This document shows positions 7,478-43,272 of a stretch of 55,181 nt of DNA, piece by piece. A program made the translations under genes and the position numbers. Position 1 is the stretch's first letter. Each line of letters opens with the position of its first letter. The notes beneath the pieces were generated by a model, which saw only the letters and a program-made list of their open reading frames with translations, was not told where the DNA came from and searched no databases. Source of the DNA: Acinetobacter phage Acba_3; sequence record OQ101248.1, one strand, 5' to 3'.

Positions 7478-8248
7478 ATGAAATCAAAACCAATAATTCC
7501 ATGGCAAGGTGGTAAAACCCGTTTGGCTAAGGATTTGTTGTGTAAGTTCCCAGAACATTCATGTTATGTGGAATTATTTTGTGGTGGAGCAGCATTATTC
7601 TTCTTAAGAGAAGGACCAGCAAGAACTGAAGTAATAAATGATCTGAATGACGAGTTGGTAAATCTGTACCGGGTAGTGCAGAACCATTTAGAAGAATTTG
7701 TGCGTCAATTCAAATGGTGCATTTCAAGTCGCCAGATTTTTGAATGGGAAAAACTAAAAGTACCAGACACACTAACGGATATTCAGCGAGCTGCAAGATT
7801 TTATTACCTTCAGCAACATGCGTTTGGTGGTAAGGTTTCTGGGCAGACATTTGGATATGCAACAACAGGCCGCTCTTTAAATCTCTTGCGGATAGAGGAA
7901 AGTTTAAGTGCAGCACATTTGCGTTTGAATGGAGTCTATATTGAAAACCTGTCCTGGGATATTTGCTTTGATAAGTATGACCGGGAACATACATTTTTTT
8001 ATGCTGATCCGCCGTATCTAGATACAGCAGGTTATGGAGTAGATTTTCCATTAGATCAGTATGAACTTCTTTCTGAAAAGATGAAGACTTGCAAAGGGAA
8101 GGTAATGCTATCAATTAATGATCATGAAAAGATTCGTGAAATCTTTAAAGGTTTTAATTTTGCATGTACTTCAATTAATTATTCTGTTGGTCGTGATTTG
8201 GCTGCTAAGAGTAAGAAAAGTAATGAACTGATAATTATGAATTATTGA
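7478..8248 (+). CDS. dam: DNA adenine methyltransferase, Dam family (D12 class N6-A MTase)
   Basis: N-terminal PWQGGK motif, FCGGAALFF SAM-binding motif, DPPY catalytic motif; AGGA RBS 8 nt upstream. Confidence 0.85.
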   Translation: MKSKPIIPWQGGKTRLAKDLLCKFPEHSCYVELFCGGAALFFLREGPARTEVINDLNDELVNLYRVVQNHLEEFVRQFKWCISSRQIFEWEKLKVPDTLTDIQRAARFYYLQQHAFGGKVSGQTFGYATTGRSLNLLRIEESLSAAHLRLNGVYIENLSWDICFDKYDREHTFFYADPPYLDTAGYGVDFPLDQYELLSEKMKTCKGKVMLSINDHEKIREIFKGFNFACTSINYSVGRDLAAKSKKSNELIIMNY

Positions 8249-9193: not shown

Positions 9194-9803
9194 TTTTATT
9201 GATCAAGCTGAAGAAGAGGAAGCAATTCGTTTAATACCGGCTCCAGACCTAAAAAAATGGGTTGTGGCTAATTACTTAACGATTGGTGGGCCTCTTTATA
9301 ATCCAGATCATGATCATATTGCTGAGTTACTTCATGATAATGAAGAGTTCTTGGCATTTGCTTGGGCCTCTTCTGCATATAAAAGCAAGCAGGCGATGGT
9401 GCTGGGGCAGTGTGAAAAAGTAATGTTTAACGTCGGTGGCTGGCGTAAAGCTAGACAAGAGCAACAGATGCGTGACTGGTTCGGTTTTGTGCCAACATAC
9501 TTAATAACTGTCGACGCTTCTTTCTGTGAGCGTGCAAACGATACAGAGTTCTGTTATTTGCTTGAACATGAGCTTTACCACATTGGAGTGATGAGAGACG
9601 AGGACGGAGAAATTGTTTATAGCGATAGTTCTGGTCTGCCTAAGCACTATCTTGCTGGTCATGACGTTGAAGAGTTTATTGGCGTAGTTAAACGGTGGGG
9701 ACCAAGTAAGAATGTTAAGCGACTTATTGAGGTCGCAAAAAATCCGCCGTTTGTTTCTGATTTAGATATTGCGAGATGCTGCGGGAACTGTGTAATCAAT
9801 TGA
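9162..9803 (+). CDS. Hypothetical protein with HExxH metallopeptidase-like motif
   Basis: LLEHELYHIG motif; Cys-rich C-terminus CCGNC. Confidence 0.4.
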   Translation: MDQIRPFPPTDFIDQAEEEEAIRLIPAPDLKKWVVANYLTIGGPLYNPDHDHIAELLHDNEEFLAFAWASSAYKSKQAMVLGQCEKVMFNVGGWRKARQEQQMRDWFGFVPTYLITVDASFCERANDTEFCYLLEHELYHIGVMRDEDGEIVYSDSSGLPKHYLAGHDVEEFIGVVKRWGPSKNVKRLIEVAKNPPFVSDLDIARCCGNCVIN

Positions 9804-25388: not shown

Positions 25389-25448
25389 TTAAGACTCGAT
25401 TTATTGCCGCCGCTTAAGGTGGTTTTTTATTGCCTGAAGGAAAGTCAA

Positions 25449-28400: not shown

Positions 28401-29423
28401 CTTTCTATAGAAGAGCGGCAAAAGCTAATCGCATTATCTAAAGCCAATCAGGATAAAGAGACACGCGATAAAGTGAATAATGCTGTTCAAAACTGGGGTG
28501 GTATTCAGGCGAGTATCACTGGTAATAGTGGTCAATTCGCTTTAGAACAGGAGCGCTTTCGCCGTTATGATGCTTCTCAAAAAGTATTTGATAGCCAGCT
28601 TGCTGATATTGAAACTCAGGAACAAGATCCAAATGCAAATATGGTAGCTCTAAATGCACAACGTGAACAAATCATGAAGGAGCACTTTGAGCGTTTGAAA
28701 TTGATTGAATCTACTTATCAAAATGATTCAATGAATCTCCAGTTGGGTTATGGAGCTAGTGTCACAGGGGCATTGGCTGGCATGTTTAAAAATATGCTTG
28801 GTGAGTCATCAAGTGCTTATCACGTTCTTTATGAAAGTCAACGTGCATTCGCATTGGCGCAGGCTGGAATGAACATGTGGAAAGCTGCTTCAGATGCTTA
28901 CGCAAATGAGCCAGGTACTTGGTACCAAAAAGCGGCAGCAGCAGCGATCGCGACAATTAAATCAGGTACATTTGTATCTCTCATCCAAGCTGCAACCCCG
29001 CAAGGATTTGCGGATGGTGGTTATACAGGTAACGGCCTAAAACACACTCCAGCAGGGATTGTGCATAAAGGCGAAGTCGTATGGTCGCAAGAAGATATCA
29101 AACGCTGGGGTGGTGTTAGCGTTGTTGAAAGTATGCGTCAAAGCAATCCAAGTGGTTATGCGAACGGAGGTTACGTTTCTAATAATCAGTCTGATGCTAT
29201 TGCAATACGTAGAGAGTCTAGACAGTTTGAGGCAATCAACTCTAATCAATCTCAATTGAATACGAACGAAAAGCCAATAAATGTGTATGTCACTGTTAAT
29301 GCCGATGGCACAAGTAAAACAGAGACAGAAAACGACTCAAAACAATTGGGCCAAATGATTGGTAATGCAGTAAGAACTATTATTCGCCAGGAACAAAGAC
29401 AAGGTGGTTTGTTATCTAAGTAA
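25449..29423 (+). CDS. Tail tape measure protein with embedded M23 (LytM-like) peptidase domain
   Basis: 1325 aa, Ala/Gln-rich helical repeats; M23 signature GPRKAPTKGASSFHKGIDFSMPEGTPI (aa ~740-770); ATG 25449 chosen because ATG 25404 overlaps an upstream terminator-like hairpin. Confidence 0.85.
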   Translation: MAQEARLVIVIDSERAKRTAQDLSVELDSITKKGDFASKSMDRMSVATRALAGYMAGLLTVGSAISKMDTYTGLQNRLKLVTNNQVELNKATEDTFRIAQKTYSAWDSVLQVYQRFSDNAKTLNLTMDDTARLTETVSKAVAISGASAEAADAALVQFGQALASGTLRGEELNSVMEQTPALAKAIAKGMGITVGELRSVAAEGKITSQEIVKALRNVESDVDALFAKTDITIEQSLTLLNNEITKFVGEAGKGSGAAQVLAGSVQTLASNLDLIADGALVVGIGYITRAILMKSAAIKEGMASTLASRQASVLNAQAEYAEATAALNAAKAHLANVRATNAETQAKFGATAAATRYAQAQAAVTAATNAQTAAQIKLNTATSIAGRLAKGAFGLIGGWAGVATLGVMGLAAAYSYFNNKAEGAKQKLAEQAKVAEKADEELKKLTGNDKAKAVNDLTTAFNAQNKALEKSSRAVGSALIDIENYARGNREVEKISQEARTGTISYTEAIERLNKIKLPTDLYENLKKQAAQYDDNASKASLSAEKLKLLRVEVKLGGNEAQNAAIQHQKQADALGNTATEAEKATKALQDYQAKQKDSVIDSIYKSGWLDKGYTVAQANAILELQKAKGMSAILSKDEIDSALRNLKIIEEQQEREDKLTEAKRKQTQEIEKQAKLTKRLVGISGQSGIGTGPHLDVRYGGSLSGQKVSNEHLARLQAGGKPLTSYKISSNYGPRKAPTKGASSFHKGIDFSMPEGTPITTNVAVKDIKTWYDSKGGGYVSEVIFEDGVSLKLLHQSPKMQSKVKGGASKGSDKAAGDIQSQLERQQDLQRSLENEVASEVGRINNNRKARLEDVDKANFSPERTAEIKAEINRRADNDIAIAKQALRTKLEDYKEFQKTEEQLLEESFNRKKFNAAHDLELSKFEQKQAVELLEQQKQQELGLLKLAQEQRLFQARLSLLSETQAMQERYRLEREEILKNTKLSIEERQKLIALSKANQDKETRDKVNNAVQNWGGIQASITGNSGQFALEQERFRRYDASQKVFDSQLADIETQEQDPNANMVALNAQREQIMKEHFERLKLIESTYQNDSMNLQLGYGASVTGALAGMFKNMLGESSSAYHVLYESQRAFALAQAGMNMWKAASDAYANEPGTWYQKAAAAAIATIKSGTFVSLIQAATPQGFADGGYTGNGLKHTPAGIVHKGEVVWSQEDIKRWGGVSVVESMRQSNPSGYANGGYVSNNQSDAIAIRRESRQFEAINSNQSQLNTNEKPINVYVTVNADGTSKTETENDSKQLGQMIGNAVRTIIRQEQRQGGLLSK

Positions 29424-29540: not shown

Positions 29541-29882
29541 ATGAGTGACTTAAAATTTACCTTTGAGTGTGATCTTGAAGGTAATAATCAAACCCAACGT
29601 TTTAATACGTTATCAACAAAATTTGGTGACGGATATGAACAAAATACTTCAATTGGTATAAACAATCGATCTGGTGAATGGACCTATCAGCGCACAGCTA
29701 AGAAAGCTGAAATTTTGGAAATTAAAGCATTCTTTGATAAGCACAAGGGTGCTAATTCTTTTCTATGGGATTCGCCGTTAGATGGTGAAGTGCGCGTTAA
29801 AGCAGGGGATTATCAACCTGTTTGCTTGGGTGGAGATACGTGGCGCATTACAACCACATTTACTCAAGTTTTCTATCCATAA
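29541..29882 (+). CDS. Minor tail protein, lambda gpM-like
   Basis: 113 aa directly after tape measure, matching lambda M (109 aa) in size and position within an M-L-K-I-J order. Confidence 0.55.
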   Translation: MSDLKFTFECDLEGNNQTQRFNTLSTKFGDGYEQNTSIGINNRSGEWTYQRTAKKAEILEIKAFFDKHKGANSFLWDSPLDGEVRVKAGDYQPVCLGGDTWRITTTFTQVFYP

Positions 29883-29896
29883 TTTTTTCTCAACGG

Positions 29897-29917
29897 CTCC
29901 TTAAGGAGCTTTTTTAT
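29897..29917 (+). terminator. Rho-independent terminator
   Basis: gctcc-ttaa-ggagc then T6. Confidence 0.55.
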
Positions 29918-29936
29918 TGCTTATTGGAGCAGAAAC

Positions 29937-30287
29937 ATGGCTATTAAAACTTTAGATCTTGCTGAAGCATATATTGTCGGTGAATTACGCACTCAATTAT
30001 TAGATGCACGTAGTTTCGGGAATAATTTGCCTGCTGGCAGAATTGAAACTTTAGCGATTAATTATGATCGACCTTCTGATTCAGTGAATATTGCTGTTAC
30101 ACCAGGTGGTGGTTTAAACGGAAGTATGACTTTACTTGATGCTGACATCACAAAGTGGGCAATTCAAACGATCTTAAACACAGCTTATCTCTATCAGGTA
30201 GATGTAAACACTTTAAGCCTTAAATATGACTTGGCTGCTAAAAAAATTACTATTGAATATACTCCAGTTGTTTCAGGTCAAGCTTAA
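29937..30287 (+). CDS. Hypothetical tail protein
   Basis: 116 aa ORF between M-like and L-like genes. Confidence 0.4.
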   Translation: MAIKTLDLAEAYIVGELRTQLLDARSFGNNLPAGRIETLAINYDRPSDSVNIAVTPGGGLNGSMTLLDADITKWAIQTILNTAYLYQVDVNTLSLKYDLAAKKITIEYTPVVSGQA

Positions 30288-30296
30288 GGAGGTCTC

Positions 30297-30995
30297 ATGA
30301 CTTTACAAAGTGACTTCCAGAAACTTGAACCAGGTGGATTAATTCACCTGTATGAATTAGATGCCAGCTCGTATGGAGTTGGCATTCTTCGATTTCATGG
30401 CCATCAGCAAATGTAAAGTATTTTTTGGCAGGGTCAGGAGTTTGAAGCTATTAGTCTGGATGTCTCTGGTTTAGAAATGAGATCAGATGGTAAGGCTTCG
30501 GCTCCCACATTAACAATCGCCAATAACCTGAACGGAATACAAGGTGCAATTTCAGCTTACTGTCTCCAATGTAAAGATTTCGTTGGAGCTAAACTCAAAG
30601 TTATAACCACACTCACCAAGTATCTTGATGCCAAGAACTTTCCTGAAGGCAATCCAACAGCATCAAATGAATCAAAAGAGCAGATTTGGTATATCGAGCA
30701 GAAAACATCTGAAAATGCTCAACAAGTAACTTTTGAGCTTTCAAACCCGATTGATTTTGAGGGGTTGAGAATACCAGTTCGTCAAATTACTTCATTGTGC
30801 CATTGGTGCACGATGGGGAAATATCGTGGTGAAGAATGTGGTTATACCGGCGCTGCTATGTTTACAGAAAAGGATGAGCCAACTGATAACCCTGCATTAG
30901 ATCGATGTGGAGGAAGGTTGCGCTCTTGCCGATTACGCTTTGGAGAAAACAAGCCCCTTCCTTTTGGAGGATTCCCAGCATCAAGCTTAGTTTGA
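30297..30995 (+). pseudogene. Lambda gpL-like minor tail protein interrupted by an in-frame TAA (30414-30416); intact 3' segment corresponds to ORF 30477-30995
   Basis: AAGGAGG RBS then ATG 30297; 39 codons, TAA, then same frame continues SIFWQGQEFEAISLDVSGLEMRSDGKASAPTLTIANNL...; C-terminal YRGEECGY...C..C..C cluster and 232-codon total length match lambda L; N-terminal segment aligns with lambda L across the stop. Confidence 0.6.
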
Positions 30996-31001
30996 GGTCC
31001 T

Positions 31002-31757
31002 ATGAAACTAACAGCAAAAATCAAAAAAGCGGTAATGGCCCATGCTGATGAATGCTATCCGCATGAATGCTGTGGGGTCATTGTAGACAAGGAATATATC
31101 CCTTGTCGAAATGTAGCAAACAAATCAGATCAGTTTGAAATACATCCTGAAGACTTAGCTTTTGCAGAAGACCAGGGCGAGATATTAGCGTATGTGCATT
31201 CCCACCCTGACGGAACTACAAGAGCCTCAGAACTAGACTTAATTCAAATTGAGTTACATCAAAAGCCTTGGGTAATTTGTTCCTATCCGGATCTAGATTT
31301 TCAAATATATGAACCATGTGGTTATCGCGCCCCTTTAGTGGGGCGTAATTATTTTCACGGTTGGCAGGATTGCTACGCTCTTATACGCGATTTTTATAGT
31401 CGTGAATTAGGAGTCGAACTTATGGATTTCGAGCGTAAAGATGCTTGGTGGGAAGATAAAGATCATCCATCACTTTATCTTGAGAATTATGAGAAAGCAG
31501 GCTTCTATGAAGTAGATACGCCGCAATATGGCGATATGCTTGTTTGTCGTGTTGGGCGTACTGAACATCCCAATCATGCGGTTGTTTGGCTTGGGGATAA
31601 TGGGCAGCTTAAATCGGAACAAACTGAGCAATGCATAGGTTCAAGTCTAATTCTTCATCATCCATATAATCGTAAATCTGTTCGTGAAATTTATGGCCAA
31701 CAATGGCAAGAGCGAACAGTAAAGATATTGAGGCATCGAGATGTTAAAAACCATTAA
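31002..31757 (+). CDS. Tail assembly protein, lambda gpK-like (JAB/MPN + NlpC/P60 domains)
   Basis: MPN/JAMM motif E..HSHPDGTTRASELD; NlpC/P60-type Cys/His segment (GWQDCYALIRDF ... HPNHAVVW). Confidence 0.85.
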   Translation: MKLTAKIKKAVMAHADECYPHECCGVIVDKEYIPCRNVANKSDQFEIHPEDLAFAEDQGEILAYVHSHPDGTTRASELDLIQIELHQKPWVICSYPDLDFQIYEPCGYRAPLVGRNYFHGWQDCYALIRDFYSRELGVELMDFERKDAWWEDKDHPSLYLENYEKAGFYEVDTPQYGDMLVCRVGRTEHPNHAVVWLGDNGQLKSEQTEQCIGSSLILHHPYNRKSVREIYGQQWQERTVKILRHRDVKNH

Positions 31758-32412
31758 ACTGTATGGAGTATTGGGACAAAAGTTTGGCCGTGAATTTAAA
31801 CTTGATGTTTTAAATACACGTGAAGCTATGCGTGCATTAGCAGTACAAGTTGAAGGTTTCGAGCAGTTCATGTTGAAAGCACATGAGCAGGGACTCCAGT
31901 TTGCTGTATTTCTTAAGAGTAAAAATTCAAGCAAAAAGCGTGGAAAGAAAAGCCCATCAATTTATGACCATGAATCAAAACGACTGATTACTGGAGACAA
32001 TATCAGTGAAGACCAGCTTGATATGACTACACAAGCTGAAGTTATTCATGTTGTGCCTAGAGTAGTTGGAGCGGGCGGGGGTGGTGGCCTTCAAACAATT
32101 ATCGGGGCTGTTATGGTAGTTGTAGGGGTGGTTGTAGGGGTGTTTGCTGGATGGACTGGTGTTGGTGCAGTTGTGGCACAAGGGTTAATCGGGGCGGGTA
32201 TCGGCATGATGCTTGGTGGTGTGGCAATGATGCTTATGCCAAAGGTCGATAATACTCAGGACCAAAACCAAGATGGTAATAGGGCAAACCAAGGATTCGG
32301 TGGAGCTGTAACTACGGTTGCCCAAGGGAACCCTGTTCCAGTTTTATATGGCCAACGTGAAGTTGGTGGATTCATTGTGAGTGCTGGTCAGTATCCTGAA
32401 GACCAGATGTAG
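31741..32412 (+). CDS. Tail assembly protein, lambda gpI-like
   Basis: 223 aa (same length as lambda I), N-terminal ubiquitin-like segment and Gly-rich hydrophobic C-terminal region; overlaps K-like gene. Confidence 0.7.
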   Translation: MLKTIKLYGVLGQKFGREFKLDVLNTREAMRALAVQVEGFEQFMLKAHEQGLQFAVFLKSKNSSKKRGKKSPSIYDHESKRLITGDNISEDQLDMTTQAEVIHVVPRVVGAGGGGGLQTIIGAVMVVVGVVVGVFAGWTGVGAVVAQGLIGAGIGMMLGGVAMMLMPKVDNTQDQNQDGNRANQGFGGAVTTVAQGNPVPVLYGQREVGGFIVSAGQYPEDQM

Positions 32413-32478: not shown

Positions 32479-35400
32479 ATGGCGATTGTAAAAGGCGCGA
32501 AAAAGGGCAAAGGTGAGGCAAGAAAACCTGTAGTTGCTCCAGATTCCGCACAATCTAAAACCTATATAAAAATCTTATATGGTTTAGGTGAAGGCGAAAT
32601 TGAAGGATTAGCCAATGGCAATCAATCAATATTTCTTGAAGGAACTCCACTACAAGATGCCAATGGGAATCTGAATTATTCAAACGTAAAACTAGATTTC
32701 CGTAAAGGAACTAATGATCAAGATTACATTGAAGGTTTTCCTTCAGTAGAAAGTGAAACTGCTGTCGATGTCGAATTGAAGTCAGGTGCTCCATGGGTAC
32801 GAGCTTTTAATAATATTGATCTTGATGCCGTTCGTATTCGCTTAAAGTGGGGACCACTTCGCCAGCAGGACTCAAGCACTGGTGATGTTAGTGGTATAAC
32901 AATTGAATATGCTATCGATATACAAACTGACGGTGGTGCCTGGACAGAAGTATTAAAAACAAAAATATCCGATAAGACTTCTGCAAATTATGAACGAGCT
33001 CACCGTATTGATTTACCAAAGGCCGATAGTGGTTGGTTAATCCGGGTACGTCGCATTACACCTAATTCAACCTCTGAGTTTGTAAGCGACAAAATGTATG
33101 TTGAGGCATTTACTGAAGTTGTTGATGCAAAATTAAGATACCCAAATACGGCATTATTAGGTCTGCAATATGATGCCGAAACTTTTGGAAATGTGGCGAA
33201 ATTAGCTGTAGATCTGAAAGGTCGATTGCTTTTAGTACCAACCAATTACAACCCGCAAACGCGACAATATACTGGAATTTGGGATGGTACTTTTAAAAGA
33301 GCTTACACAAATAACCCGGCATGGATTTACTACGACCTTTGTACAAATGATCGTTATGGTTTAGGAAATCGCTTAACCCCATTCATGATTGATAAATGGT
33401 CTTTGTACCGTTTAGCTCAATACTGCGATCAAAGCGTTTCCGACGGACTTGGCGGCCAAGAACCTAGATTTACATGTAATGTGTACATTCAAAATGCTGA
33501 AGATGCTTTCAGTATATTAATGAAATTGGCTGGTGTCTTTCGAGCGATTGCCTTCTGGGATGGTACAAGCATTATATGTGATGCCGATATACCACAAGAC
33601 ACATATTTCACCTATACCCGTGCAAATGTGGTTGGTGGTGTTTTCGAATACTCAGGAACACGTGCACGTGATCGGCATAATGTAGTTAAGGTTGCGTGGG
33701 ATAATCCTGCAAATCACTATAAAACAGAATACGAATTTGTTCGCGATGAAAATGCTATTGCTGAGTCTGGCCAAGTACGCATTCTTGAATTAGATGCGTG
33801 GGGATGTACTTCTCGTGGCCAGGCTCAACGTGCAGGCCACTGGGCTTTAAAATCCGAGCAAAAGGAGACTCGTACAGTTTCGTTTAAAGTCGGTTTAGAT
33901 GGGCATATTCCACTGCCAGGAAGAGTAATTGAAATTGCGGATGAACTGTTTGCAGGACGTGCTAATGGCGGACGTGTATCTAAAATTTCTGCTGATCTCA
34001 AAAGCATAACCATTGATCGAGATGACGTTATTGCTAAAGCTGGTGATCGTCTGGTTATCAATGGCGAAAATGGCAAAGCACAAACGCGAATTGTTCAGTC
34101 GATCTCTGGTCGGGTTATCACAGTAACACTTCCATTCGATGAGAATTCAATTGCTGTACAAAACGTATGGGTTCTTGATGCTCAAGATTTAGCGACAATG
34201 AAGTTCCGCGTAATTTCAATCTCGCAAGAAGAAAAACACCAATTTAGCATTACAGCGCTTCAGTACAACCCGCAAAAATTTGATGAAATTGATAACGGGG
34301 CATTCTTTGAAGATGCACCTATTTCAATTATTAATCCTTCAATCCAGGAACCGGTTAAAGATGTTTTGATTACGACTGAAAGTCGTGTTGATCAGGGTAT
34401 TAATATCACCACAATGATTGTGTCTTGGATGCAAGCGAAAGGTGCCGTTAAGTATCTGGTTGAGTGGCGAAAAGATGATGGATCGTGGATCCGGTTACCG
34501 CAAACAGGAAATAATTCAGTCGAGGTACCTGGTGTTTATTCAGGTCAATATCAAGCTCGTGTTACCGCAATTTCTGCTTTTGAAATCGCATCTTTACCGG
34601 TTACATCTTCCTTAACTGAAATTACTGGAAAGCAGGGATTACCGCCGAAAATAGCTTTTATACGTGCCACAGGTATTTTGTTTGGAATGAAGCTTGATTG
34701 GGGATTCCCTCCAACAGGTGCAAAAGATACAGCTTATACCGAAATTGAAGTTTCACCTGATGGCATCAACAATATTGCTCAATTAGGATTGTTTGCATAT
34801 CCGACTACCACTACCACAATCCAAGGTTTACAACCTAATCTTAGACAGTTTTATCGCGGTCGATTAATTGACCGGATTGGCAATGTTGGTCCTTGGTCTG
34901 AATGGGTCAATGGTACGACCACAGCAGATCCGGAAGCGGTTCTTGATCTTATTTCTGGTCATATTAATGAGAGTGATCTTGCCCAAGAGCTTCAAGGTAA
35001 AATTGAAAATTCAGTCGATGTATCTGAAGCAGCCCAAGCTGCAGCAAATAATGCCCAAGCTGTTGCTAGTAGCGCCCAAACTGCAGCTAACAATGCCCAG
35101 GCTGTGGCCTCTGAAGCTAAGACGGCGGCCTCGAGTGCTCAATCGGCAGCAACCACTGCTCAAACACAAGCTTCTTCAGCCCAAAAAATAGCAAATGATG
35201 CGAGTGTTATAGCGACCAATGCTAAAAATACTGCTGATCAGGCAGCTGAAGATGCGTCTTCAGCAATAACGGCAGCAGCAGAAGCAAAAACTACTGCTAC
35301 TAATGCGAATACGACCGCAACGAATGCACAAACAACCGCAAATAATGCTTCTTCGGCAGCATCAAAAGTTGCTTCAGATTTAACAACCTCAACAAATCAG

Positions 35401-38400
35401 TTGAATAAGAAAATCGCTGATGAAACTGATGCACGCACAGCGGCAATTTCTAAACTGAATGATGGTCTCACCACAGAAACGTCTCAGCGCAAGTCAGAAG
35501 ATGCTGCACTGTTAAACAATATTGAGACTTATAAGTCGAGCACCAATGGCACTTTGTCTAGTCTGCAAACGCAAATTAATACCAACGCGACAAATACAAG
35601 TGCAAATACATCAAAAATTTCTTCGCTTGACTCTCGTTTAACCACAAACGAAGGCAAAACCGCAGATGCGATTAATGCAGCGGCAACAGCTCAACAAACT
35701 GCCAATACCGCCGTTACTAATGCGGCAGCAGCAGCTTCGGCAGTTACCTCACTAAAATCAGAGTTGAGTACAGGCAAAGGCATCAACAATATCATTGCGC
35801 CTTTTTCTGATCCGCAAGAACTATCACCTTACATTATCGGTGCGTCGAGAACCGTTGCCTTAGTAAAATCACCAATGCGTATTAAGGGTAATGCTTATGA
35901 CGTTACATTTAATGCGGTGGCTGGCAGTATTTATTTTGGTTCCTCGTCACTAGCAACAGTCAATACTGCGGCGGCAGGTGTTGTCAGTGGCGGAAAGCGT
36001 TACATGCTAAGCGCTTATTTAAAGAACCTCGATGCCACTAAACAGGCAGATGTTTACTTTACATTGCATTGGTTTAAACGTGCAGCAAACGGCACTTTCA
36101 CGGCTTCTCAAAGTGTTTTATTAAATCAGGCAACTAACAACACACGAGTAACACCTTCAAACGACGGCGGTACAATTAGCTGTAAAGCTGTAGCAGCACC
36201 ACCAGATGCAGTTGCCTTTGCGGTTATCTGTTCTGGCAACGGCGTTTATAACGTCGCTGGTTCACGCATTCTCATTGACATGTTAATGCTTGAAGAGGTC
36301 GTTGGTGTCGATGTACCTGCTTCAACATGGACAGCAGGACCAACTGATTTAAGTGCTATTAAATCCGCTCTTGATGCCAATGCTTCTGCTATTAGCAAAA
36401 TCGATACCCGTGTAACAAATGCCGAAGGCACCATTACAAGCCAAGGCAATTCAATTACTCAATTGAATAACAGCGTTACGTCAATCAATGGCGAACTTAC
36501 GAAGAAAGCTGATGCTACGGCTTTAAATGCCTTAACCAACCGAGTATCGACAGCAGAAGGCACAATTACAAGTCAAGGCAATTCAATTACGTCTTTACGT
36601 AATGATTTAAACGCAACCAATGACAAGGTTTCGTCAAAAGCGGACTCAAGTGCATTAAATTCCTTAGATTCTAAGGTTACAAGCATTGATGGAAGAGTAA
36701 CTAGCAATACGAGTGCTGTGACCTCATTGCAAGGTCGTGTTTCAACCGTCGAGGGTGGACTTTCATCGAAAGCAGATGCCTCGGCATTAAACAATTACTA
36801 CACCAAAACAGAGGCGGATTCTGCCGCTTCTGGCGCAATCGATAAGTTCAACAGTCAATTGACGATCGGCGGAGTAAACGCTGTTGCGAACTCAGAGGCT
36901 CCACGTACTTCAACGGCAGCGACTAACAAAGAATACTTGCTGTACGAACGCAGCGCCGAATTAAAAACGTTCTATGACGAGAACCTTGAGAAGCCAATCA
37001 CGATTTCGTTTGAAATGAGCGTTCCTGTGGCTGGACCAGTTCAAGTTTATTCGTCAAATGGTTCTGCTCACCAATTCGTTACTTCCGTTAACGCGGTTAT
37101 CGTCAATCAGTTTGCCAAATACTCAGTAACAGTTAGTCCAAAATCGCACACCGCAAGTACAACTGTTTCAACAATTGAGTTCTATGGAACGTATGGAACT
37201 GGTCGTATCCCGACGATTCGTAAATTACAAATTGAAGCGGGCACAAAGGCTACCGCTTGGAGTCCAAGCCCTCGTGATACAAAGGCTGCAATTGACGCCA
37301 ATGCTTCTGCAATTCAAACGACCCAAACAAAAGTTGACAATATCGATGGTCGGCTAACCACTGCTACAGATTCGATTACGTCACTAAATTCGCGCATGTC
37401 TACAGCCGAAGGGAATATCAACAGCACAAATACTGCGGTTGGTGGACTTTCGACACGCATGGCAACCGCTGAGGGCAAGATCACCAATCAAAGTGATTCA
37501 ATTGCATCGCTACAAAATAGCGTCACCTCAATCAATGGAACACTGGCAAACAAAGCCGATTCAAGCGCGGTCAATAACTTAACTAGCCGAGTGGAAACAG
37601 CCGAGGGCAAGATTTCAAGTCAAAGCGGGCAGATTACTTCGCTTAGCAATAGCCTTGATCTAACAAACAGCAACTTGAACGACGTAAATGTTCTGGCGCG
37701 ACTGTTATCGCTTGGTAAGCCTCTACGCGAGGATCCAACTTTTAAAACTACCTCTTCGGGCGGTTTGTCTGCATACAATTTCCCTGCGGGAACCTCATGG
37801 ATTAAGCAAGCCAAGTCAACAGACAACCCAACTGGCTCAACCCATGAAATGCTTATTAAGGCAACTCAAGCGTTGGGTGGTGGTTGGTATCCAACTGCTC
37901 CAACGCTCGTGCTTACTGCTAATAAGACATTCTTAATTAAACAAATTATTAAGATGCCAGTAGGCACGAGATTGCTACCTGTAGGTAACACCACTGGTAC
38001 GGGTGGTTATATCAGAATCTTGGGTAACGATCTTGGGACTGGCAAATTTGAAACGTACTACTCGGTCGTTCAGGGTGGATCTGACTTAAGCAGCTCTATT
38101 CAGGGTCATTTCCGTGTAATTGCTGGGACCAACCCGCCAGTACCAACCGTTGATAGTCCAGTTTTTGTAATCCTCGCTTCATACGAAGTGTTTGATGTTA
38201 CGGCTGTAAATGACACCATTCCAAAAGCGTATAGCGATGCTATTGCAGCCAATGCGAATGCTATTAACACGATCTCAAACGCCGTCAGCCAGCAAGGCAA
38301 TACAATTGCTTCTCACAGCAATTCGATTACCCAACTCAACAACAGCATTACTAGCATTAATGGCGCACTTTCGAATAAAGCGGACGCGAGTGCATTACAG

Positions 38401-41400
38401 TCATTGGATTCAAAAGTAACGCTAATCGATGGCAAAGTTACTTCAAATTCATCGGCCTTAACGGCTTTACAAAGCAGCTTTGAGGGAATTCCAAATCAAG
38501 GCGTGAATCTGCTCGGCCCTGAAATTTCCAACACAATCGAAAAGCCAAATTGGATTTCAGGCCTTCCATTTGAAGTTATTCAATCACCAGATACGGTGAA
38601 TGTGCGTGCGTTCCAATTCACGATGACTGCTAACACCACTAGCGGCACTTACTTCAATATTGGCGGTGGTCAAGTGCCTCGCCAATGGTTAACTGAAGGC
38701 AAATATATCTTTAGTTTTGTTGCTAAAACAGTTGATGGTGCGCCACCCCACCCGATTGACTGGGTAATGTACAACGTTAGCACTACTCGCCAACGTTTCA
38801 ATATTACAGCGACATTAACTCGTTACAGTGCGGTATTCACCGTTCCTGCCGGCGGCGCGGCAGCATGTATGTTGTTGTACGGAAATCCTGCTGGCAAACC
38901 TGCTGGCCAAGTTATCAATATCGAAAGAATGATGCTTGAACGCCAAGTCGGCAACAACACCACGCCTTCGACTTGGATTGCAGGGTCAGATCCAACTGGA
39001 ATGATCATTTCCACTCAAGCAAAAGCGACTGACCTGTTCAATACAGCCACGAATCAAAATAATGCAACTGCGGGACGTGTTACTAGCCTCGAAAGTCGCA
39101 TGACAACCACAGAAGGCAATTTAAGCAAAAAGGCTGATGCTTCTGCGCTTCAAAACCTCGACACGAAAGTTACGAATGTCGATGGCAAGGTAACGTCAAA
39201 TACCAACGCTATCACCTCGCTCAATTCCGCGTTAAGCAATGCCACATCAAGTATTTCAATGAATGCGGGTAATGCACAGGGCGATTGGACATTCTTTAAT
39301 ACGTCAGGCGAATACTCAATTGTTGCACAAGCGGACGGACAAGCTGGTCGAGTTATTCAACTGGGTAACAACGCGGGCAATGACATTGTTTGGATGCATC
39401 CAAACAACTTCATTCCGTTTGACGCAACCAAAACATATCGCTTACGAGTGCGTTATCGCCGTCGTGCAGGCAATGGCACCATTTATGTCGGTGTCTCGCA
39501 GAAAACCCCAGACAAGGCACTATACGTAACAACAGCCAACGCATTATCGGGCGACATGGGATCTTCTAACTATGTCGTTAATGCCCACGCGCCTGCGATC
39601 GATGAATGGCAAGAAATCGTTGCGTATATCAAAGGTCGATCAGCAGGAGCGGCATCAGGTTCAGGCTCAAAAACAAGCCCACGTACTGTTTCACAACAAG
39701 CAGGCTTCATCACGCCGATGTTTATTGCAAACTATTCGGCGCAAACGGGCATTGTTGAGCTTGATTACCTAATTCTGGAAGATGCAGAGGCAATTGTTGC
39801 CAATGATGCAAATGCATCAGCGATTAGCGCTCTTGATACCAAAGTATCAGAAGTTGATGGACGCTTAACGACAGCAACAAATTCAATCACTTCGCTTAAC
39901 TCTCGTATGAGTGCAGCAGAAGGGAATATCTCAGCGGCAAACTCGGCTCTAAGCGGGCTTTCGACAAGAATGACGGCTGCTGAAAATGGTTTAACAAATC
40001 AAAGCAACGCGATTACTAATTTAAGTAACAGCTTGACGGTTACAACCAATACAGCCAACGCTGCATTGCCAAAGATTCAGGGCGGCACTGGCGCAGCTAA
40101 GTTATTTAGAGGCGTGCTGGTGTGGCAACAAAACGGCGCAAATCTAACTGGCAATATCGTAATCCAAACGCCAATTACGTTCACAAATAAAATGTTCCGA
40201 CTTTCACTTACTGGCTATAACTACTTGGCCGCTAAGAATGAAATTAATCTGAACATTGGGGGTTATGCATATTCGGGCACCTCTCTACTTCAACATGGTG
40301 TAGTGAATTCGGGCACCATGCCAATTCGAGTTCGCATGGGCGTCCGTAATGGCACAGTAGTCATTATTTTGACGTCCCAAGCGCCCGGTGCTTATTGGCA
40401 GTATCCAAAATTCAACATTGATGCCGAAATCGGCTATACAACTCCGCCAGACGAATGGATGAATGGTTGGTCTGCAAGCTTCATGGCAGAGGCAGACCTC
40501 GCATCTAATGGCATTTCGGCGATCATTGAGCCGTCTTTATTAGACATTTCAACAACGCTTAATGCCACTGCATCTGCAATTAGCAATCTGACAAATACTG
40601 TGTCTCAACAGGGTAATACAATTACTTCACAAAGTAATTCTATTACCACCTTAACCAACAAGATTACTAACAACGATTTATCGAATCTTGTTCTTAATCC
40701 TGATTTCGTAGACCCGAAAAGCGATTGGACATCTGGCGTAATTGTTGATGCGACTGACGCAGCACCTAACCCGCCTTCTCCAAAAGCATTAAGACTGAAT
40801 AACCGCGATAGTTATTACGGTCCTTTTGTCAAATGTAATGTTGGCGACATGTTCTACGTTTCGGCTTGGTTTGCAACGCCAAATACATCAGTAATCGCTT
40901 CTGCTGTACTTGGTTTCAATACTCGAAACAGTGCAGGTACTTATACTTGGTATAGTGTTGCCGTCAAGTCTACAGATAAAAATGCTTGGGGTATGGTGGA
41001 AGGTTATTTCACTGTGCCAAATGGCATGGTTGAAATTCGACCTTGGCTTCAAGTAAGTATTGCTGCGTCAGAGGCAGCGGGGCAGCAATGGCATGTTACG
41101 AACATTCAAGTACGTAACATTACAGGTAATAAGAAATTAGCAACCGACTTGCAAGCAACCTCGTCTGCATTAAGTACGCTTGATTCCAAAGTTGCAAACA
41201 TTGACGGCCGTGTAACTTCCGCATCTAACAATATTGTTTCGCTCAACAATAGCGTCACAAACATCAATGCCGCACTTTCTCAGAAAGCGGATGCGGCGGC
41301 ATTGAATTCCCTTTCTAACCGTGTAACCACTGCCGAAGGGAATATCACTAGTCAGGGTAATTCAATTACCTCATTGACCAACTCGTTAGCTGTGAGCGGA

Positions 41401-42948
41401 AAGGCGGGCACAAACCTTCTCATCAAGTCAAATCAAGTCGGTACATATGATGGTGTCTCTTATCCGCATCACACCTACAAACTCGGTGAAGATTGGGAAA
41501 TTGGGGCTACCTATACTTTAATTTGGTGCGCTGAACATAAACGAGGGACTGGTGATACAAACTCATCACTTGCTGTATACGCAGGTGGTGGCTCACAACA
41601 TCTACAAGCCGTAGTAAATACGAATGGTAAGGTTGTCAGCAAAGTTACCTTTGTTAAAAACAGCGCAGTTGCCTCTGGCCCAATTATCCACTTCTACATG
41701 CTCAACCGTCCGACAGCCGACAAGGGTAGCGTTGGTACGGTTTATTGGGCAGTTCTTGTTAAAGGCGATGTACTCACTACGGACGCGTGGATTCCGAGCC
41801 CATATGATTACATCCCTGATAGCAATGCAAACGCTTCTGCTATCGCAAATCTCACTAATACAGTAAGTCAGCAAGGCAATACTATTACCTCAAATAGCAG
41901 CAGCATTACCTCGCTAAACAATAGCATCACCAATATTAACAGCACATTAGCAACAAAAGCAGATAGTTCTGCGCTTACAAACCTCGCAAGCCGCGTAACC
42001 GCAACAGAAGGTGCAATTACATCCCACGGCTCAAGCATTACTTCACTGAATGCATCTGTGAATGGTTTATTAAAGGATGTTTCAGTATCCGATACGCGGT
42101 CAACAAATCAGCCGCCGTCATGGTACTGGTCAAACTATCCATTACGTATCGTTCGCGAGTTCAAACAAGCATCTGTGCTAGGTTTAACTGGCATGGGCAC
42201 TTATGTCTCTCTTGAAACATACGTTTATTGGACTGACGCATCTGGTGGCCCAATTATTCAAATTGCACGCGGCACAGATTCGAAACTTACTGCTGAACGT
42301 CGTAGTGCGAGTACAGCGGCATGGAGTACATGGACACAAGATATAAAAGCAATAAGTGATGGGCTTGCAAATAAGGCTGAAGCATCCGCACTTTCATCAC
42401 TTGACTCGAAAGTGTCGGTTATTGATGGGAAAGTTTCTACTCAGGCCTCAAGTATTACTACACTGCAAACTACAGTTGGTGGTAATACAGCCTCTATTCA
42501 ATCTCAACAACAATCAATTGATGGCCTGAAAGCAAGAGCAACATTGAAGCTGCAATCCGGCAATTTGGTTGGTGGCGTTGGCATTGAGAATGACAGCAAA
42601 ACAGTCGATTTCATCATCCAAGCTAATAAGTTTGCAATTGGTGCGCCTTCAACTGTTTCCGGCTCTGTGACGCCTAAATATGCATTCGTCTATCAATCAA
42701 CAGCAACAACTCTGCCGAATGGGACAGTGATTCCTGCTGGCTTGTACTTAGACAGCGCGTCTATTAGCTATATCAACGCCAACAAAATTTATGCAGATAG
42801 TTTAAGTGCTATTAGTGCAAATCTTGGTACCTTTACCTCATTGGCAGATCAATCAAAACCAAATGGTGCTAGGACTGTAATTAGTGGTGAGAGGATCGAA
42901 GTTTACGACGAAAACAATGTTATGCGTGTACGGATTGGGAGATGGTAA
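32479..42948 (+). CDS. Host specificity protein J-like central tail fibre, 3489 aa, with long repetitive multi-module fibre
   Basis: N-terminal ~1150 aa has lambda-J-like blocks and an FN3-like segment; aa ~1150-3350 is Ala/Ser/Thr/Asn-rich with at least 10 copies of KAD(A/S)SAL..L(D/T)S(K/R)V(T/S)..(D/E)G(K/R)VTS and SQQGNTITS.SNSIT.LNN motifs alternating with globular beta-rich modules; C-terminus FIIQANKFAIG...LYLDSASISYINANKIYADS resembles J-type C-terminal domains. Confidence 0.85.
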   Translation: MAIVKGAKKGKGEARKPVVAPDSAQSKTYIKILYGLGEGEIEGLANGNQSIFLEGTPLQDANGNLNYSNVKLDFRKGTNDQDYIEGFPSVESETAVDVELKSGAPWVRAFNNIDLDAVRIRLKWGPLRQQDSSTGDVSGITIEYAIDIQTDGGAWTEVLKTKISDKTSANYERAHRIDLPKADSGWLIRVRRITPNSTSEFVSDKMYVEAFTEVVDAKLRYPNTALLGLQYDAETFGNVAKLAVDLKGRLLLVPTNYNPQTRQYTGIWDGTFKRAYTNNPAWIYYDLCTNDRYGLGNRLTPFMIDKWSLYRLAQYCDQSVSDGLGGQEPRFTCNVYIQNAEDAFSILMKLAGVFRAIAFWDGTSIICDADIPQDTYFTYTRANVVGGVFEYSGTRARDRHNVVKVAWDNPANHYKTEYEFVRDENAIAESGQVRILELDAWGCTSRGQAQRAGHWALKSEQKETRTVSFKVGLDGHIPLPGRVIEIADELFAGRANGGRVSKISADLKSITIDRDDVIAKAGDRLVINGENGKAQTRIVQSISGRVITVTLPFDENSIAVQNVWVLDAQDLATMKFRVISISQEEKHQFSITALQYNPQKFDEIDNGAFFEDAPISIINPSIQEPVKDVLITTESRVDQGINITTMIVSWMQAKGAVKYLVEWRKDDGSWIRLPQTGNNSVEVPGVYSGQYQARVTAISAFEIASLPVTSSLTEITGKQGLPPKIAFIRATGILFGMKLDWGFPPTGAKDTAYTEIEVSPDGINNIAQLGLFAYPTTTTTIQGLQPNLRQFYRGRLIDRIGNVGPWSEWVNGTTTADPEAVLDLISGHINESDLAQELQGKIENSVDVSEAAQAAANNAQAVASSAQTAANNAQAVASEAKTAASSAQSAATTAQTQASSAQKIANDASVIATNAKNTADQAAEDASSAITAAAEAKTTATNANTTATNAQTTANNASSAASKVASDLTTSTNQLNKKIADETDARTAAISKLNDGLTTETSQRKSEDAALLNNIETYKSSTNGTLSSLQTQINTNATNTSANTSKISSLDSRLTTNEGKTADAINAAATAQQTANTAVTNAAAAASAVTSLKSELSTGKGINNIIAPFSDPQELSPYIIGASRTVALVKSPMRIKGNAYDVTFNAVAGSIYFGSSSLATVNTAAAGVVSGGKRYMLSAYLKNLDATKQADVYFTLHWFKRAANGTFTASQSVLLNQATNNTRVTPSNDGGTISCKAVAAPPDAVAFAVICSGNGVYNVAGSRILIDMLMLEEVVGVDVPASTWTAGPTDLSAIKSALDANASAISKIDTRVTNAEGTITSQGNSITQLNNSVTSINGELTKKADATALNALTNRVSTAEGTITSQGNSITSLRNDLNATNDKVSSKADSSALNSLDSKVTSIDGRVTSNTSAVTSLQGRVSTVEGGLSSKADASALNNYYTKTEADSAASGAIDKFNSQLTIGGVNAVANSEAPRTSTAATNKEYLLYERSAELKTFYDENLEKPITISFEMSVPVAGPVQVYSSNGSAHQFVTSVNAVIVNQFAKYSVTVSPKSHTASTTVSTIEFYGTYGTGRIPTIRKLQIEAGTKATAWSPSPRDTKAAIDANASAIQTTQTKVDNIDGRLTTATDSITSLNSRMSTAEGNINSTNTAVGGLSTRMATAEGKITNQSDSIASLQNSVTSINGTLANKADSSAVNNLTSRVETAEGKISSQSGQITSLSNSLDLTNSNLNDVNVLARLLSLGKPLREDPTFKTTSSGGLSAYNFPAGTSWIKQAKSTDNPTGSTHEMLIKATQALGGGWYPTAPTLVLTANKTFLIKQIIKMPVGTRLLPVGNTTGTGGYIRILGNDLGTGKFETYYSVVQGGSDLSSSIQGHFRVIAGTNPPVPTVDSPVFVILASYEVFDVTAVNDTIPKAYSDAIAANANAINTISNAVSQQGNTIASHSNSITQLNNSITSINGALSNKADASALQSLDSKVTLIDGKVTSNSSALTALQSSFEGIPNQGVNLLGPEISNTIEKPNWISGLPFEVIQSPDTVNVRAFQFTMTANTTSGTYFNIGGGQVPRQWLTEGKYIFSFVAKTVDGAPPHPIDWVMYNVSTTRQRFNITATLTRYSAVFTVPAGGAAACMLLYGNPAGKPAGQVINIERMMLERQVGNNTTPSTWIAGSDPTGMIISTQAKATDLFNTATNQNNATAGRVTSLESRMTTTEGNLSKKADASALQNLDTKVTNVDGKVTSNTNAITSLNSALSNATSSISMNAGNAQGDWTFFNTSGEYSIVAQADGQAGRVIQLGNNAGNDIVWMHPNNFIPFDATKTYRLRVRYRRRAGNGTIYVGVSQKTPDKALYVTTANALSGDMGSSNYVVNAHAPAIDEWQEIVAYIKGRSAGAASGSGSKTSPRTVSQQAGFITPMFIANYSAQTGIVELDYLILEDAEAIVANDANASAISALDTKVSEVDGRLTTATNSITSLNSRMSAAEGNISAANSALSGLSTRMTAAENGLTNQSNAITNLSNSLTVTTNTANAALPKIQGGTGAAKLFRGVLVWQQNGANLTGNIVIQTPITFTNKMFRLSLTGYNYLAAKNEINLNIGGYAYSGTSLLQHGVVNSGTMPIRVRMGVRNGTVVIILTSQAPGAYWQYPKFNIDAEIGYTTPPDEWMNGWSASFMAEADLASNGISAIIEPSLLDISTTLNATASAISNLTNTVSQQGNTITSQSNSITTLTNKITNNDLSNLVLNPDFVDPKSDWTSGVIVDATDAAPNPPSPKALRLNNRDSYYGPFVKCNVGDMFYVSAWFATPNTSVIASAVLGFNTRNSAGTYTWYSVAVKSTDKNAWGMVEGYFTVPNGMVEIRPWLQVSIAASEAAGQQWHVTNIQVRNITGNKKLATDLQATSSALSTLDSKVANIDGRVTSASNNIVSLNNSVTNINAALSQKADAAALNSLSNRVTTAEGNITSQGNSITSLTNSLAVSGKAGTNLLIKSNQVGTYDGVSYPHHTYKLGEDWEIGATYTLIWCAEHKRGTGDTNSSLAVYAGGGSQHLQAVVNTNGKVVSKVTFVKNSAVASGPIIHFYMLNRPTADKGSVGTVYWAVLVKGDVLTTDAWIPSPYDYIPDSNANASAIANLTNTVSQQGNTITSNSSSITSLNNSITNINSTLATKADSSALTNLASRVTATEGAITSHGSSITSLNASVNGLLKDVSVSDTRSTNQPPSWYWSNYPLRIVREFKQASVLGLTGMGTYVSLETYVYWTDASGGPIIQIARGTDSKLTAERRSASTAAWSTWTQDIKAISDGLANKAEASALSSLDSKVSVIDGKVSTQASSITTLQTTVGGNTASIQSQQQSIDGLKARATLKLQSGNLVGGVGIENDSKTVDFIIQANKFAIGAPSTVSGSVTPKYAFVYQSTATTLPNGTVIPAGLYLDSASISYINANKIYADSLSAISANLGTFTSLADQSKPNGARTVISGERIEVYDENNVMRVRIGRW

Positions 42949-43272
42949 ATGCCCACAGGAATGATAATAAATTCTGAATCAGGGGAAGTTGTTTTTGATG
43001 GAACTGTGAAGATCCCTAAAATACTAGGGAAGGTTCTAATCGAGAATGGACAAACTTCAGCAGTATTAAACCTTAACAAGCCACTTGATGGCACGATGTT
43101 TTTTATTCCAAAAGGATTAGCAACTACAGTCGATCCAATCTATGCCCCTTTGGGAATTAACTATGAAGTAAGTCTTAGTTCTAACAAGCAGGTTGTAACG
43201 GTTAAATACATCGCGACCAGTGAGCAGCCAAAAGCAGGGACTGATTTTGAAGTTTATATTGGTGAATATTGA
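42949..43272 (+). CDS. Hypothetical protein downstream of fibre
   Basis: ATG immediately after fibre stop. Confidence 0.35.
   Translation: MPTGMIINSESGEVVFDGTVKIPKILGKVLIENGQTSAVLNLNKPLDGTMFFIPKGLATTVDPIYAPLGINYEVSLSSNKQVVTVKYIATSEQPKAGTDFEVYIGEY

Follow-up and report, generated by a model that had tools for sequence, protein, structure and literature searches.

The window, that is, the whole 55,181-nucleotide stretch of DNA that was analysed (Acinetobacter phage Acba_3, OQ101248.1), is the genome of a temperate A. baumannii siphophage; it encodes an integrase and a CI repressor and has a tail module like that of lambda. Within the tail module, positions 32479..42948 of the plus strand form a single uninterrupted open reading frame (ORF) of 10,470 nt with an ATG start, which encodes a protein of 3489 aa. 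The initial annotation had described this product as a host-specificity protein of the lambda J type with a long modular fibre spliced in, and that description stands, with the fibre placed behind the hub and the FNIII domains. The reading that we favour, and regard as a whole as probable, is that the gene encodes the central tail fibre of the TipJ/gpJ family and that this fibre is a modular adhesin whose domains resemble carbohydrate-binding modules (CBMs).

The layout of the protein was mapped by comparing 100-aa chunks with the whole protein, which splits repeat-rich from unique stretches, and by inspection of the sequence. Nine globular modules (G1-G9) separated by nine stalks (S1-S9) were found between a hub with its coil and a tip domain (CT). 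The parts are as follows; AlphaFold2 (AF2) models are given with their predicted local distance difference test (pLDDT) values.

32479..34968, plus strand: TipJ hub region, hub and fibronectin type III (FNIII)-type domains (aa 1-830), from BLASTP, Pfam and PDB sequence matches
34969..35766, plus strand: Ala-rich heptad coiled coil, proximal alpha-helical shaft (aa 831-1096), from composition and periodicity
35767..36354, plus strand: G1 (aa 1097-1292), non-repetitive in self-comparison, no Pfam match
36355..36861, plus strand: stalk S1 (aa 1293-1461) of 44-aa (132-nt) units, direct DNA repeats 132 nt apart, hydrophobic period 3.4
36862..37278, plus strand: G2 (aa 1462-1600), AF2 beta-sandwich, pLDDT 69-83
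37279..37674, plus strand: stalk S2 (aa 1601-1732), AF2 helix with the central part mostly at pLDDT 77-87, profile match to P22-type gp26
37675..38232, plus strand: G3 (aa 1733-1918), AF2 domain of about ten strands, beta-sandwich, pLDDT 57-86
38233..38475, plus strand: stalk S3 (aa 1919-1999), one copy of the repeat NA.AI..L.N.VSQQGNTI.S.SNSIT.L
38476..38994, plus strand: G4 (aa 2000-2172), related to G1, AF2 model poor, pLDDT 26-63
38995..39243, plus strand: stalk S4 (aa 2173-2255), repeat coverage in self-comparison, AF2 helix at low confidence
39244..39804, plus strand: G5 (aa 2256-2442), best-modelled domain, AF2 beta-sandwich, pLDDT 72-89
39805..40035, plus strand: stalk S5 (aa 2443-2519), 75-nt repeat in common with S2 (75% identity), hydrophobic period 3.5
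40036..40554, plus strand: G6 (aa 2520-2692), non-repetitive, AF2 pLDDT 24-39
40555..40665, plus strand: stalk S6 (aa 2693-2729), second copy of the repeat at a breakpoint of phage phi1_092021
40666..41136, plus strand: G7 (aa 2730-2886), 7-8 strands in AF2, pLDDT 47-65
41137..41394, plus strand: stalk S7 (aa 2887-2972), copy of repeat family D1 at 41319-41369, hydrophobic period 3.4
41395..41820, plus strand: G8 (aa 2973-3114), AF2 beta-sandwich, pLDDT about 50-68
41821..42057, plus strand: stalk S8 (aa 3115-3193), with gene nt 9427-9533 matched on both sides of an extra module of phi1_092021
42058..42354, plus strand: G9, penultimate knob (aa 3194-3292), adjoining CT, AF2 model poor
42355..42525, plus strand: stalk S9 (aa 3293-3349), aligning with the coil before the tip domain in 9ze4_N and 7z4b_EA
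42526..42948, plus strand: tip-fibre domain CT (aa 3350-3489) and stop codon, from Pfam and profile matches

The hub is homologous to lambda J. BLASTP aligned aa 9-847 in collinear order with residues 3-840 of lambda J (35% identity, E 3e-139), and two Pfam families passed their cut-offs, FNIII-A_GpJ with 151 bits and Phage-tail_3 with 65 bits. The best solved relative in the PDB sequence search was the F2-pyocin fibre (25vf_A, E 3e-258); other J-like fibres and lambda gpJ (8iyk_J) ranked after it. The initial annotation had extended the likeness to lambda J over the first ~1150 aa; the N-terminus is indeed J-like, but the likeness stops at about aa 847, and the alignment with the F2 pyocin is significant only to about aa 850. 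From aa 831 onwards the protein continues as an Ala-rich coil with 68 Ala, 40 Thr and 34 Ser among 266 residues, a strong 3.5-residue Ala periodicity and a weak Pfam match to Alanine_zipper. Such a coil had been placed at aa 1165-1300; it exists, but at aa 831-1096, about 330 residues upstream. Its place in the protein corresponds to that of the helical shaft in the central fibre of F-pyocins. When aa 801-1110 were searched alone against the PDB no match was obtained, and homology of this coil to the switching coil of the pyocin was dropped as a candidate.

The fibre gene also keeps the gene order of the TipJ/gpJ family, as it follows the M, L, K and I genes and lies downstream of the tape measure gene:

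29541..32412, plus strand: lambda-type tail-tip genes M, L, K and I, with Pfam Phage_min_tail, Phage_tail_L, Prok-JAB plus NLPC_P60, and Lambda_tail_I
25404-29423: tape measure ORF of 1339 aa, upstream of M, L, K and I

The globular modules were compared with each other and with relatives. In a profile-profile comparison of G1-G9, only G1 and G4 were related (hhalign 93%, 163 columns), so that at least eight module families are present. Homologues of G2 occurred at 56-78% identity in the myophages ABMM1, phiAbaA1 and Acibel004. G3 had homologues in ABMM1, ME3, TAC1 and Acibel004 (32-71%), and G4 had two in ME3 (41% and 29%). Those of G5 were found in phiAbaA1, ABMM1, TAC1 and Presley (37-49%), and those of G8 in the same four phages and in ME3 (39-76%). 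G9 was matched in Acibel004, TAC1, ME3 and Presley (39-60%) and G7 at 31% identity in gp21 of Klebsiella phage phiKO2, and G6 was rare among relatives. Four motifs that had been read as module ends were located at the ends of G1, G4, G5 and G8: LIDMLMLEEV at aa 1265, IERMMLERQVG at aa 2148, VELDYLILEDAEAIV at aa 2426 and VLTTDAWIPSPYDY at aa 3098.

Two AF2 models were built, model A for aa 1293-2442 and model B for aa 2443-3489, on alignments of database homologues that included multi-module collinear rows, as fragments alone were stacked by MAFFT. In model A, the predicted structures show G2, G3 and G5 as confident beta-sandwiches of CBM-like fold, and G4 was poor. Model B was poor throughout (mean pLDDT 49.7), with G7 and G8 marginal and G6 and G9 unreliable; a beta-sandwich of CBM type for G7 and G8 is thus only weakly indicated by the model. 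Foldseek searches of model A against the PDB returned CBM22 as tandem and as single domains (E 1e-7) and CBM4-2, with template modelling (TM) scores of 0.55-0.60, among them 0.58 for CBM4-2, and further Cry toxin domain III, CBM-like domains of protoxins, Bacteroides SGBP-B, CBM-bearing glycosidases and gp20 of phage Douge. The matches to CBM22, CBM4-2 and Cry domain III had E values of 1e-5 to 1e-10. The single-domain CBM4-2 and CBM22 matches (TM 0.55-0.60 on the target) agree in size with G5, which also gave a weak Pfam match to Endotoxin_C (E 0.046). Model B, at low confidence, matched Douge gp20, CBM22, CBM16, CBM4, the Fbs1 sugar-binding domain and the open fibre of lambda gpJ.

By this similarity of fold, the modules may bind carbohydrate. 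Independent context agrees with a binding role. In phage Douge, the central-fibre domains with carbohydrate-binding-like folds (CFP-NTD as well as CFP-tip-CTD) bound the host surface in experiments (PMC13033339). Sibling modules in a relative of the window protein (P0135) pass the Pfam thresholds for CBM_4_9 and ILEI, and an InterProScan survey placed galactose-binding-like domains in the giant fibres of ME3, TAC1 and other myophages, which are reported to make no halos (PMC11058221). The initial annotation had suggested receptor-binding or carbohydrate-binding modules; the predicted folds of G2, G3 and G5, and the CBM matches of the model that contains them, are in line with this, but G1, G4, G6 and G9 have no reliable fold. 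It had also pictured the modules as stacked. Several modules are present, but they are arranged as beads along a coiled-coil shaft.

A depolymerase fold had been named among the possibilities. If the modules were enzymes, such as capsule depolymerases, esterases or lysins, the protein would be a multi-enzyme fibre similar to a tailspike. Depolymerases are frequent in Acinetobacter phages, and one Foldseek match was the carbohydrate esterase of phi24B. However, no beta-helix, SGNH, lyase or glycosidase family was found by Pfam or PHROGs, the modules are just 100-190 aa long, and the Foldseek matches are the binding domains of enzymes and not their catalytic ones. Phages with exactly this protein give small clear plaques without halos (PMC9866556). 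We consider enzymatic modules very unlikely, and the depolymerase reading was rejected since neither enzyme families nor halos were found.

The spacers between the modules are coiled-coil stalks in character. All stalks showed a hydrophobic periodicity of 3.4-3.6 and were rich in Ser, Thr, Ala and Asn. Their profiles matched the P22-type needle gp26 (4lin_A, E 3e-13), reovirus sigma-1, trimeric autotransporter stalks and fibritin, and in the AF2 models the stalks were long helices only, with S1 at low confidence (pLDDT mostly 36-71). A trimeric state is suggested by analogy with the gpJ hub and by these matches to trimeric fibres. The Ala-rich coil and the stalks together comprise 1067 residues, about 158 nm if wholly helical, and with the nine knobs and the tip added the fully extended fibre would reach a length of the order of 150-200 nm. 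Published micrographs show a 237-nm tail, and a terminal fibre goes unmentioned there (PMC9866556). At least six cycles of stalk and module had been counted at first; the alternation of repeat stalks with non-repetitive, beta-rich modules was borne out, but self-comparison gave nine cycles.

The stalks are also repeated at the DNA level, as first reported. A 23-nt repeat occurs exactly at 36436 and with 1 mismatch at 36568, where 0 would be expected by chance, and a 51-nt copy that is 80% identical lies at 41319-41369. At the protein level, NTVSQQGNTITS was found at aa 2706 and 3127. The stalk motif KADASALNSLDSKVTSIDGRVTS of the initial annotation is not present as written; the actual string is KADSSALNSLDSKVTSIDGRVTS at aa 1387, which reads KADSSALNS... 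and not KADASALNS...

The stalk repeat was also observed outside the fibre gene. A 76-aa ORF at 7062-7292 of the plus strand consists solely of it (…NKADATAVSALNARVTSVEGVNTSQGNSITTLNNGL…). This ORF belongs to the early region and has a methyltransferase-like ORF (7421-8248) just downstream. Its DNA at 7209-7231 matches the 23-mer of the fibre stalk with 2 mismatches, and profiles of giant tail proteins in PHROG match it. The fibre stalks could recombine with it, as donor or as target, or it could encode a small coiled-coil protein.

Relatives were compared to follow the modules across genomes. With a 1076-aa fibre query, 184 homologues from A. baumannii were gathered, which displayed more than 60 module architectures with modules that are 90-100% identical across contexts. 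The TipJ forms begin with G1-G2 and end nearly always with G9-CT, sometimes with a further extension. Between these ends the module sets seen were G8 alone, G3-G8, G3-G7, G7-G8 and G3-G4-G5, and duplications (G2-G2, G7-G7-G7) and extra modules also occurred. Two homologues, P0122 and P0125, carry an extra module of about 291 aa between G8 and G9 that is lacking in the window protein; its assignment as an ILEI domain was withdrawn, as Pfam did not detect one.

The complete phage phi1_092021, which matches 79% of the fibre gene in three pieces (megablast), encodes a J protein of 2990 aa with the order G1-G2-G3-G7-G8-G5'-G9. Its hub, Ala-rich coil and G1, and also S9 and CT, are 100% identical in protein to those of the window. 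The difference at G4-G6 is bounded by a junction (phi1 nt 5773-5881) whose DNA matches both S3 and S6, and the S8 repeat (window-gene nt 9427-9533) is matched on both flanks of the extra module of phi1_092021. The breakpoints therefore lie inside the shared stalk repeat. Phage AM106, isolated in another country, has a fibre gene of equal length with 93.8% identity (megablast) and keeps the nine-module order, and its identity is a mosaic in which blocks of 100% alternate with blocks of 83-93%. In AM106 (L011 1201-11670), the first ~4.2 kb and G6 are 100% identical, and the distal third has 83-93% identity. Its G3-S3 region contains compensating indels, and for this reason an ungapped comparison was uninformative at about aa 1733-2172.

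Homologues of G2, G3, G4, G5, G8, G9 and CT (30-78%) were also present in other orders in further Acinetobacter phages, namely the podophage Presley, the jumbo phage ME3 and the myophages TAC1, phiAbaA1, Acibel004 and ABMM1. When aa 2973-3489 were searched against representatives of clusters at 50% identity, 2090 clusters were matched, 182 of them below 1e-30. Among the best 150 representatives, 38 were at least 3000 aa long, with a maximum of 4797 aa, and a fibre of this size and build is therefore common. The modules are reassorted among relatives, with breakpoints in the stalk repeats, and the comparison supports exchange by recombination within these repeats. The module shuffling that had been predicted is thus supported by differing module content and by breakpoints in repeated stalk DNA, and the module order is not the same in all relatives.

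A giant repetitive ORF may also arise as an artefact of assembly or annotation, from collapsed or chimeric repeats or from fused genes. In favour of this, the gene has repeats, and contig ends truncate many of its homologues in the databases. However, the 10,470-nt ORF was found by megablast at 100% identity in five phage genomes (Acinetobacter phages Acba_4, 14, 15, 16 and 18), at more than 99.9% in two more (Acba_11 and Acba_13) and at 94% with the same length in AM106. It contains no internal stops, and the modules are unique sequences that cannot come from repeat collapse. We regard an artefact as almost inconceivable. The variation in architecture is likewise real, as shown by two complete phage genomes and by several variant fibre proteins encoded on 3.9-Mb contigs. 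In the deposited records the gene is annotated as "putative main tail protein" (in AM106 "central fiber") or "central tail fiber J", and the paper that describes the Acba phages does not discuss the fibre protein (PMC9866556).

The composition of the stalks bears on another explanation, that they are metastable and switch fold. In the F7 pyocin central fibre, a coil of 163 residues turns into a beta-prism and drives penetration, and it has a conserved SxSxxMxxLxS pattern (2026 preprint). This pattern, in either direction, occurred 37 times in S1-S9 against 16.4 +/- 3.8 in shuffled sequences, and 0 of 2000 shuffles reached 37; the shuffles destroy the heptad periodicity, so that the enrichment is only suggestive and may mirror an ordinary coiled coil rich in Ser, Thr and Ala. 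Forward and reverse matches alternate (e.g. 3300/3313/3321), a tip domain of beta structure comes straight after S9, an arrangement also seen in F7, and close relatives are named "beta strand repeat-containing protein" at NCBI. A fibre of about 150-200 nm would also need a means of bringing the tube to the membrane. However, the Ala-rich coil, which has the position equivalent to that of the pyocin coil, was not enriched (4 vs 3.4) and shows no sequence homology to it, AF2 gave helices only, and the globular modules between the stalks would have to be accommodated. Fold-switching stalks are therefore improbable in our view. A bolder form, which we rate as a shade less probable again, would have all nine stalks switch to beta-prisms after tip binding, with the fibre as a contractile tether that reels the non-contractile tail through a thick capsule and the CBM-like knobs as ratchet holds. 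The motif enrichment, the position of S9 and the genes at the PyoF11/12 position are compatible with it, and beyond the motif counts no test supports it.

The distal end of the fibre was then compared with solved tip proteins. CT scored 18.2 bits for Pfam Phage_Tail_Tip (PF09327, DUF1983), below the cut-off of 22, and the homologous CT of relative P0135 scored 39 bits. The CT of the window protein weakly resembled lambda J ~875-986 in BLASTP. In profile searches, S9 and CT together matched two solved tip fibres, 9ze4_N (E 5.9e-13) and that of SU10 (7z4b_EA), the latter down to the last residues (...RIGxW). In lambda J, Phage_Tail_Tip lies at 845-972 and the receptor-binding Ig_GpJ_C at 1001-1132 (247 bits), and Ig_GpJ_C was absent from the window fibre protein when sought by Pfam. 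With the J match ending at ~847 and the CT match at J ~875-986, the fibre is, in lambda terms, inserted between J ~840 and ~875. The last ~200 aa had been called J-like. About 140 aa do resemble J ~875-986, but this is not the receptor-binding end formed by the last 130 aa of lambda J, as Ig_GpJ_C is missing.

Two small ORFs follow the fibre gene and are candidate partners of the distal tip:

42949..43272, plus strand: 107-aa ORF, candidate distal-tip partner, starting at the base after the J stop codon
43269..43997, plus strand: 242-aa ORF, candidate distal-tip partner, overlapping the 107-aa ORF by 4 nt

Neither ORF had a Pfam match or a solved relative, and their PHROG families lack a function label. 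The 107-aa ORF is 100% identical in phi1_092021. Every CT-ended fibre that was examined (TAC1, phiAbaA1, Acibel004 and Presley) is followed by an ORF pair of like sizes; homology of the pairs could not be established by sequence comparison with the counterparts in these other Acinetobacter phages, and the 242-aa ORF matched its phiAbaA1 counterpart marginally (23% identity, E 0.001 in a tiny database). In GenBank the 242-aa ORF is labelled 'putative side tail fiber protein' or 'membrane-associated protein'. The two ORFs agree in position and gene number with PyoF11 and PyoF12 of the F-pyocins, the next two genes after the central fibre, which are essential there and are predicted to be fibre-end caps and receptor binders (PMC12874032). 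By this analogy, the terminal receptor binder may be supplied in trans by the two small downstream proteins.

Other ends were observed among the relatives. In P0175, P0127, P0131, P0051 and P0009, the last ~40 aa of CT are replaced by ...IKVKNANIEDGAIDTLKIKDEAVTVPIG... and a globular extension of about 200-350 aa that ends in ...VIEMKK. ME3 gp104 (5419 aa) has its CT-like (DUF1983) domain inside the chain, at about aa 4360-4440, with more galactose-binding-like domains after it, so that the tip domain is not always terminal. The alternative CT ends suggest exchangeable tips that are either fused or supplied in trans.

Several points weigh against the reading as a modular CBM-like adhesin. None of G1-G9 reached the threshold of a curated Pfam CBM or lectin family in a listing to E 5, and none matched a solved structure in PDB sequence and profile searches. 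The AF2 models are monomers from shallow alignments of 20-28 rows; no reliable model was obtained for G1, G4, G6 and G9, and only a marginal one for G7 and G8. The Foldseek output gives no query coordinates, and its matches belong to the models and not to individual modules. CBM-like jelly rolls also serve purely structural roles. Draft assemblies are the source of many homologues, which are partial, and some of the apparent architectures could be assembly artefacts. In addition, phages with an identical J were lytic on 17 to 75% of the tested strains (PMC9866556), which indicates that factors besides the J fibre shape the host range.

In the main rival reading, the modules are structural only. 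They would be knobs that register or stiffen the trimer, or spacers, as in T4 fibritin or the long tail fibre, and recognition would reside solely in the distal G9, CT and the two downstream proteins; the number of modules would tune the fibre length, for example to span capsules of differing thickness. We hold this to be unlikely, although it deserves serious attention. In TipJ-type relatives G9 always adjoins CT, and this pair is the nearly constant distal unit, whereas the internal modules come and go. The ORF pair is kept in position after CT-ended fibres and takes the place that PyoF11/PyoF12, putative receptor binders, have in F-pyocins, and some relatives swap the CT end for a fused extension of ~200 aa or longer. 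No curated sugar-binding family was detected by Pfam in the window protein. On the other hand, at least eight unrelated module families at 90-100% identity across contexts exceed what spacers need, and the model with G2, G3 and G5 matches binding modules in Foldseek. In sibling modules, true CBM_4_9 and ILEI domains are present, and in Douge the CBM-like domains of the central fibre attach to the host surface (PMC13033339).

Under the favoured reading of a modular adhesin fibre, residues 1-830 would make up a hub at the tail tip like that of lambda. Three chains would run on from about residue 831 as an alpha-helical coiled-coil shaft, made of the Ala-rich coil and then the nine stalks rich in Ser, Thr and Asn, and at nine points each chain would loop out into a different beta-rich globular module. 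At its end the fibre would carry G9 as a small knob and then a tip domain of beta structure, with homology to solved tip fibres of phages, on which the two small proteins encoded downstream probably dock. The CBM-like modules would most likely be low-affinity, multivalent adhesins for surface glycans, either capsule or lipooligosaccharide. Bound to glycans, they would capture the phage and give it its orientation, and the tip would then trigger infection. Homologous recombination between the near-identical stalk DNA repeats would delete, duplicate or import whole modules, and the differing module sets of relatives would presumably give differing adsorption ranges.

Temperate phages of A. baumannii, a priority pathogen, are under consideration for engineering. 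The corrected domain map provides units for host-range engineering and binding assays, namely the hub, the Ala-rich coil, nine exchangeable modules between recombinogenic stalk repeats, the conserved G9-CT tip and two partner genes. The comparison also provides direct sequence evidence that modules of this putative adhesin cross between sipho-, myo- and podophages of one host via short stalk repeats. The protein itself is not exceptional, as giant fibres of like build are abundant in public data. The gene had already been deposited, and giant modular fibres with galactose-binding-like domains are already known, including the J-fused gp21 of phiKO2.

Among known systems, lambda gpJ (PDB 8iyk, 8xcj) shares the position after M, L, K and I, about 840 collinear N-terminal residues at 35% identity, and a Phage_Tail_Tip segment (J 845-972) related to CT. 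Unlike gpJ, the window protein inserts about 2500 residues, the coil and nine modules, between J ~840 and ~875, lacks Ig_GpJ_C (1001-1132) and is three times longer. The F-type pyocin fibre (F2: PDB 25vf; F7: PMC12874032, PMC13455828) is the best solved match of the hub (E 3e-258), and in it, too, the FNIII domains lead straight into a long alpha-helical shaft, which in the pyocin is trimeric, and two small genes lie immediately downstream. However, its significant similarity to the window protein ends at about residue 850. The pyocin has one 163-residue coil, on which side fibres dock, with no globular modules between, and the motif of its fold switch shows no enrichment in the Ala-rich coil that is its equivalent in the window protein.

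The giant fibres of Acinetobacter myo- and podophages are ME3 gp104 (5419 aa), phiAbaA1 gp32 (3259 aa), ABMM1 gp22 (3451 aa), TAC1 gp42/43, Acibel004 gp123 and Presley gp60. They share the stalk repeat, homologues of G2, G3, G4, G5, G8 and G9 (30-78%) and, in most, the CT tip domain, which was not detected in ABMM1. They differ in that no J hub is fused and in the order and number of modules, and the ME3 fibre has further domains after the tip domain. Klebsiella phiKO2 gp21 (3433 aa, 'similar to lambda J') likewise has the stalk repeat and the G7 homologue at 31% identity. Douge gp20 (PDB 8zdp) was the top phage structural match to both models and is a siphophage central fibre with several CBM-like domains. 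In contrast to the window protein, with which it shares no sequence similarity, it is much shorter (763-878 residues modelled), is separate from the hub and has no long coiled-coil stalks. Finally, the window stalks resemble P22 gp26, reovirus sigma-1, T4 fibritin and trimeric autotransporter stalks in their heptad periodicity and in the gp26 profile match (E 3e-13). However, the fibres of the gp26 type have single short coils, whereas the chain of the window protein alternates nine coils with globular modules.

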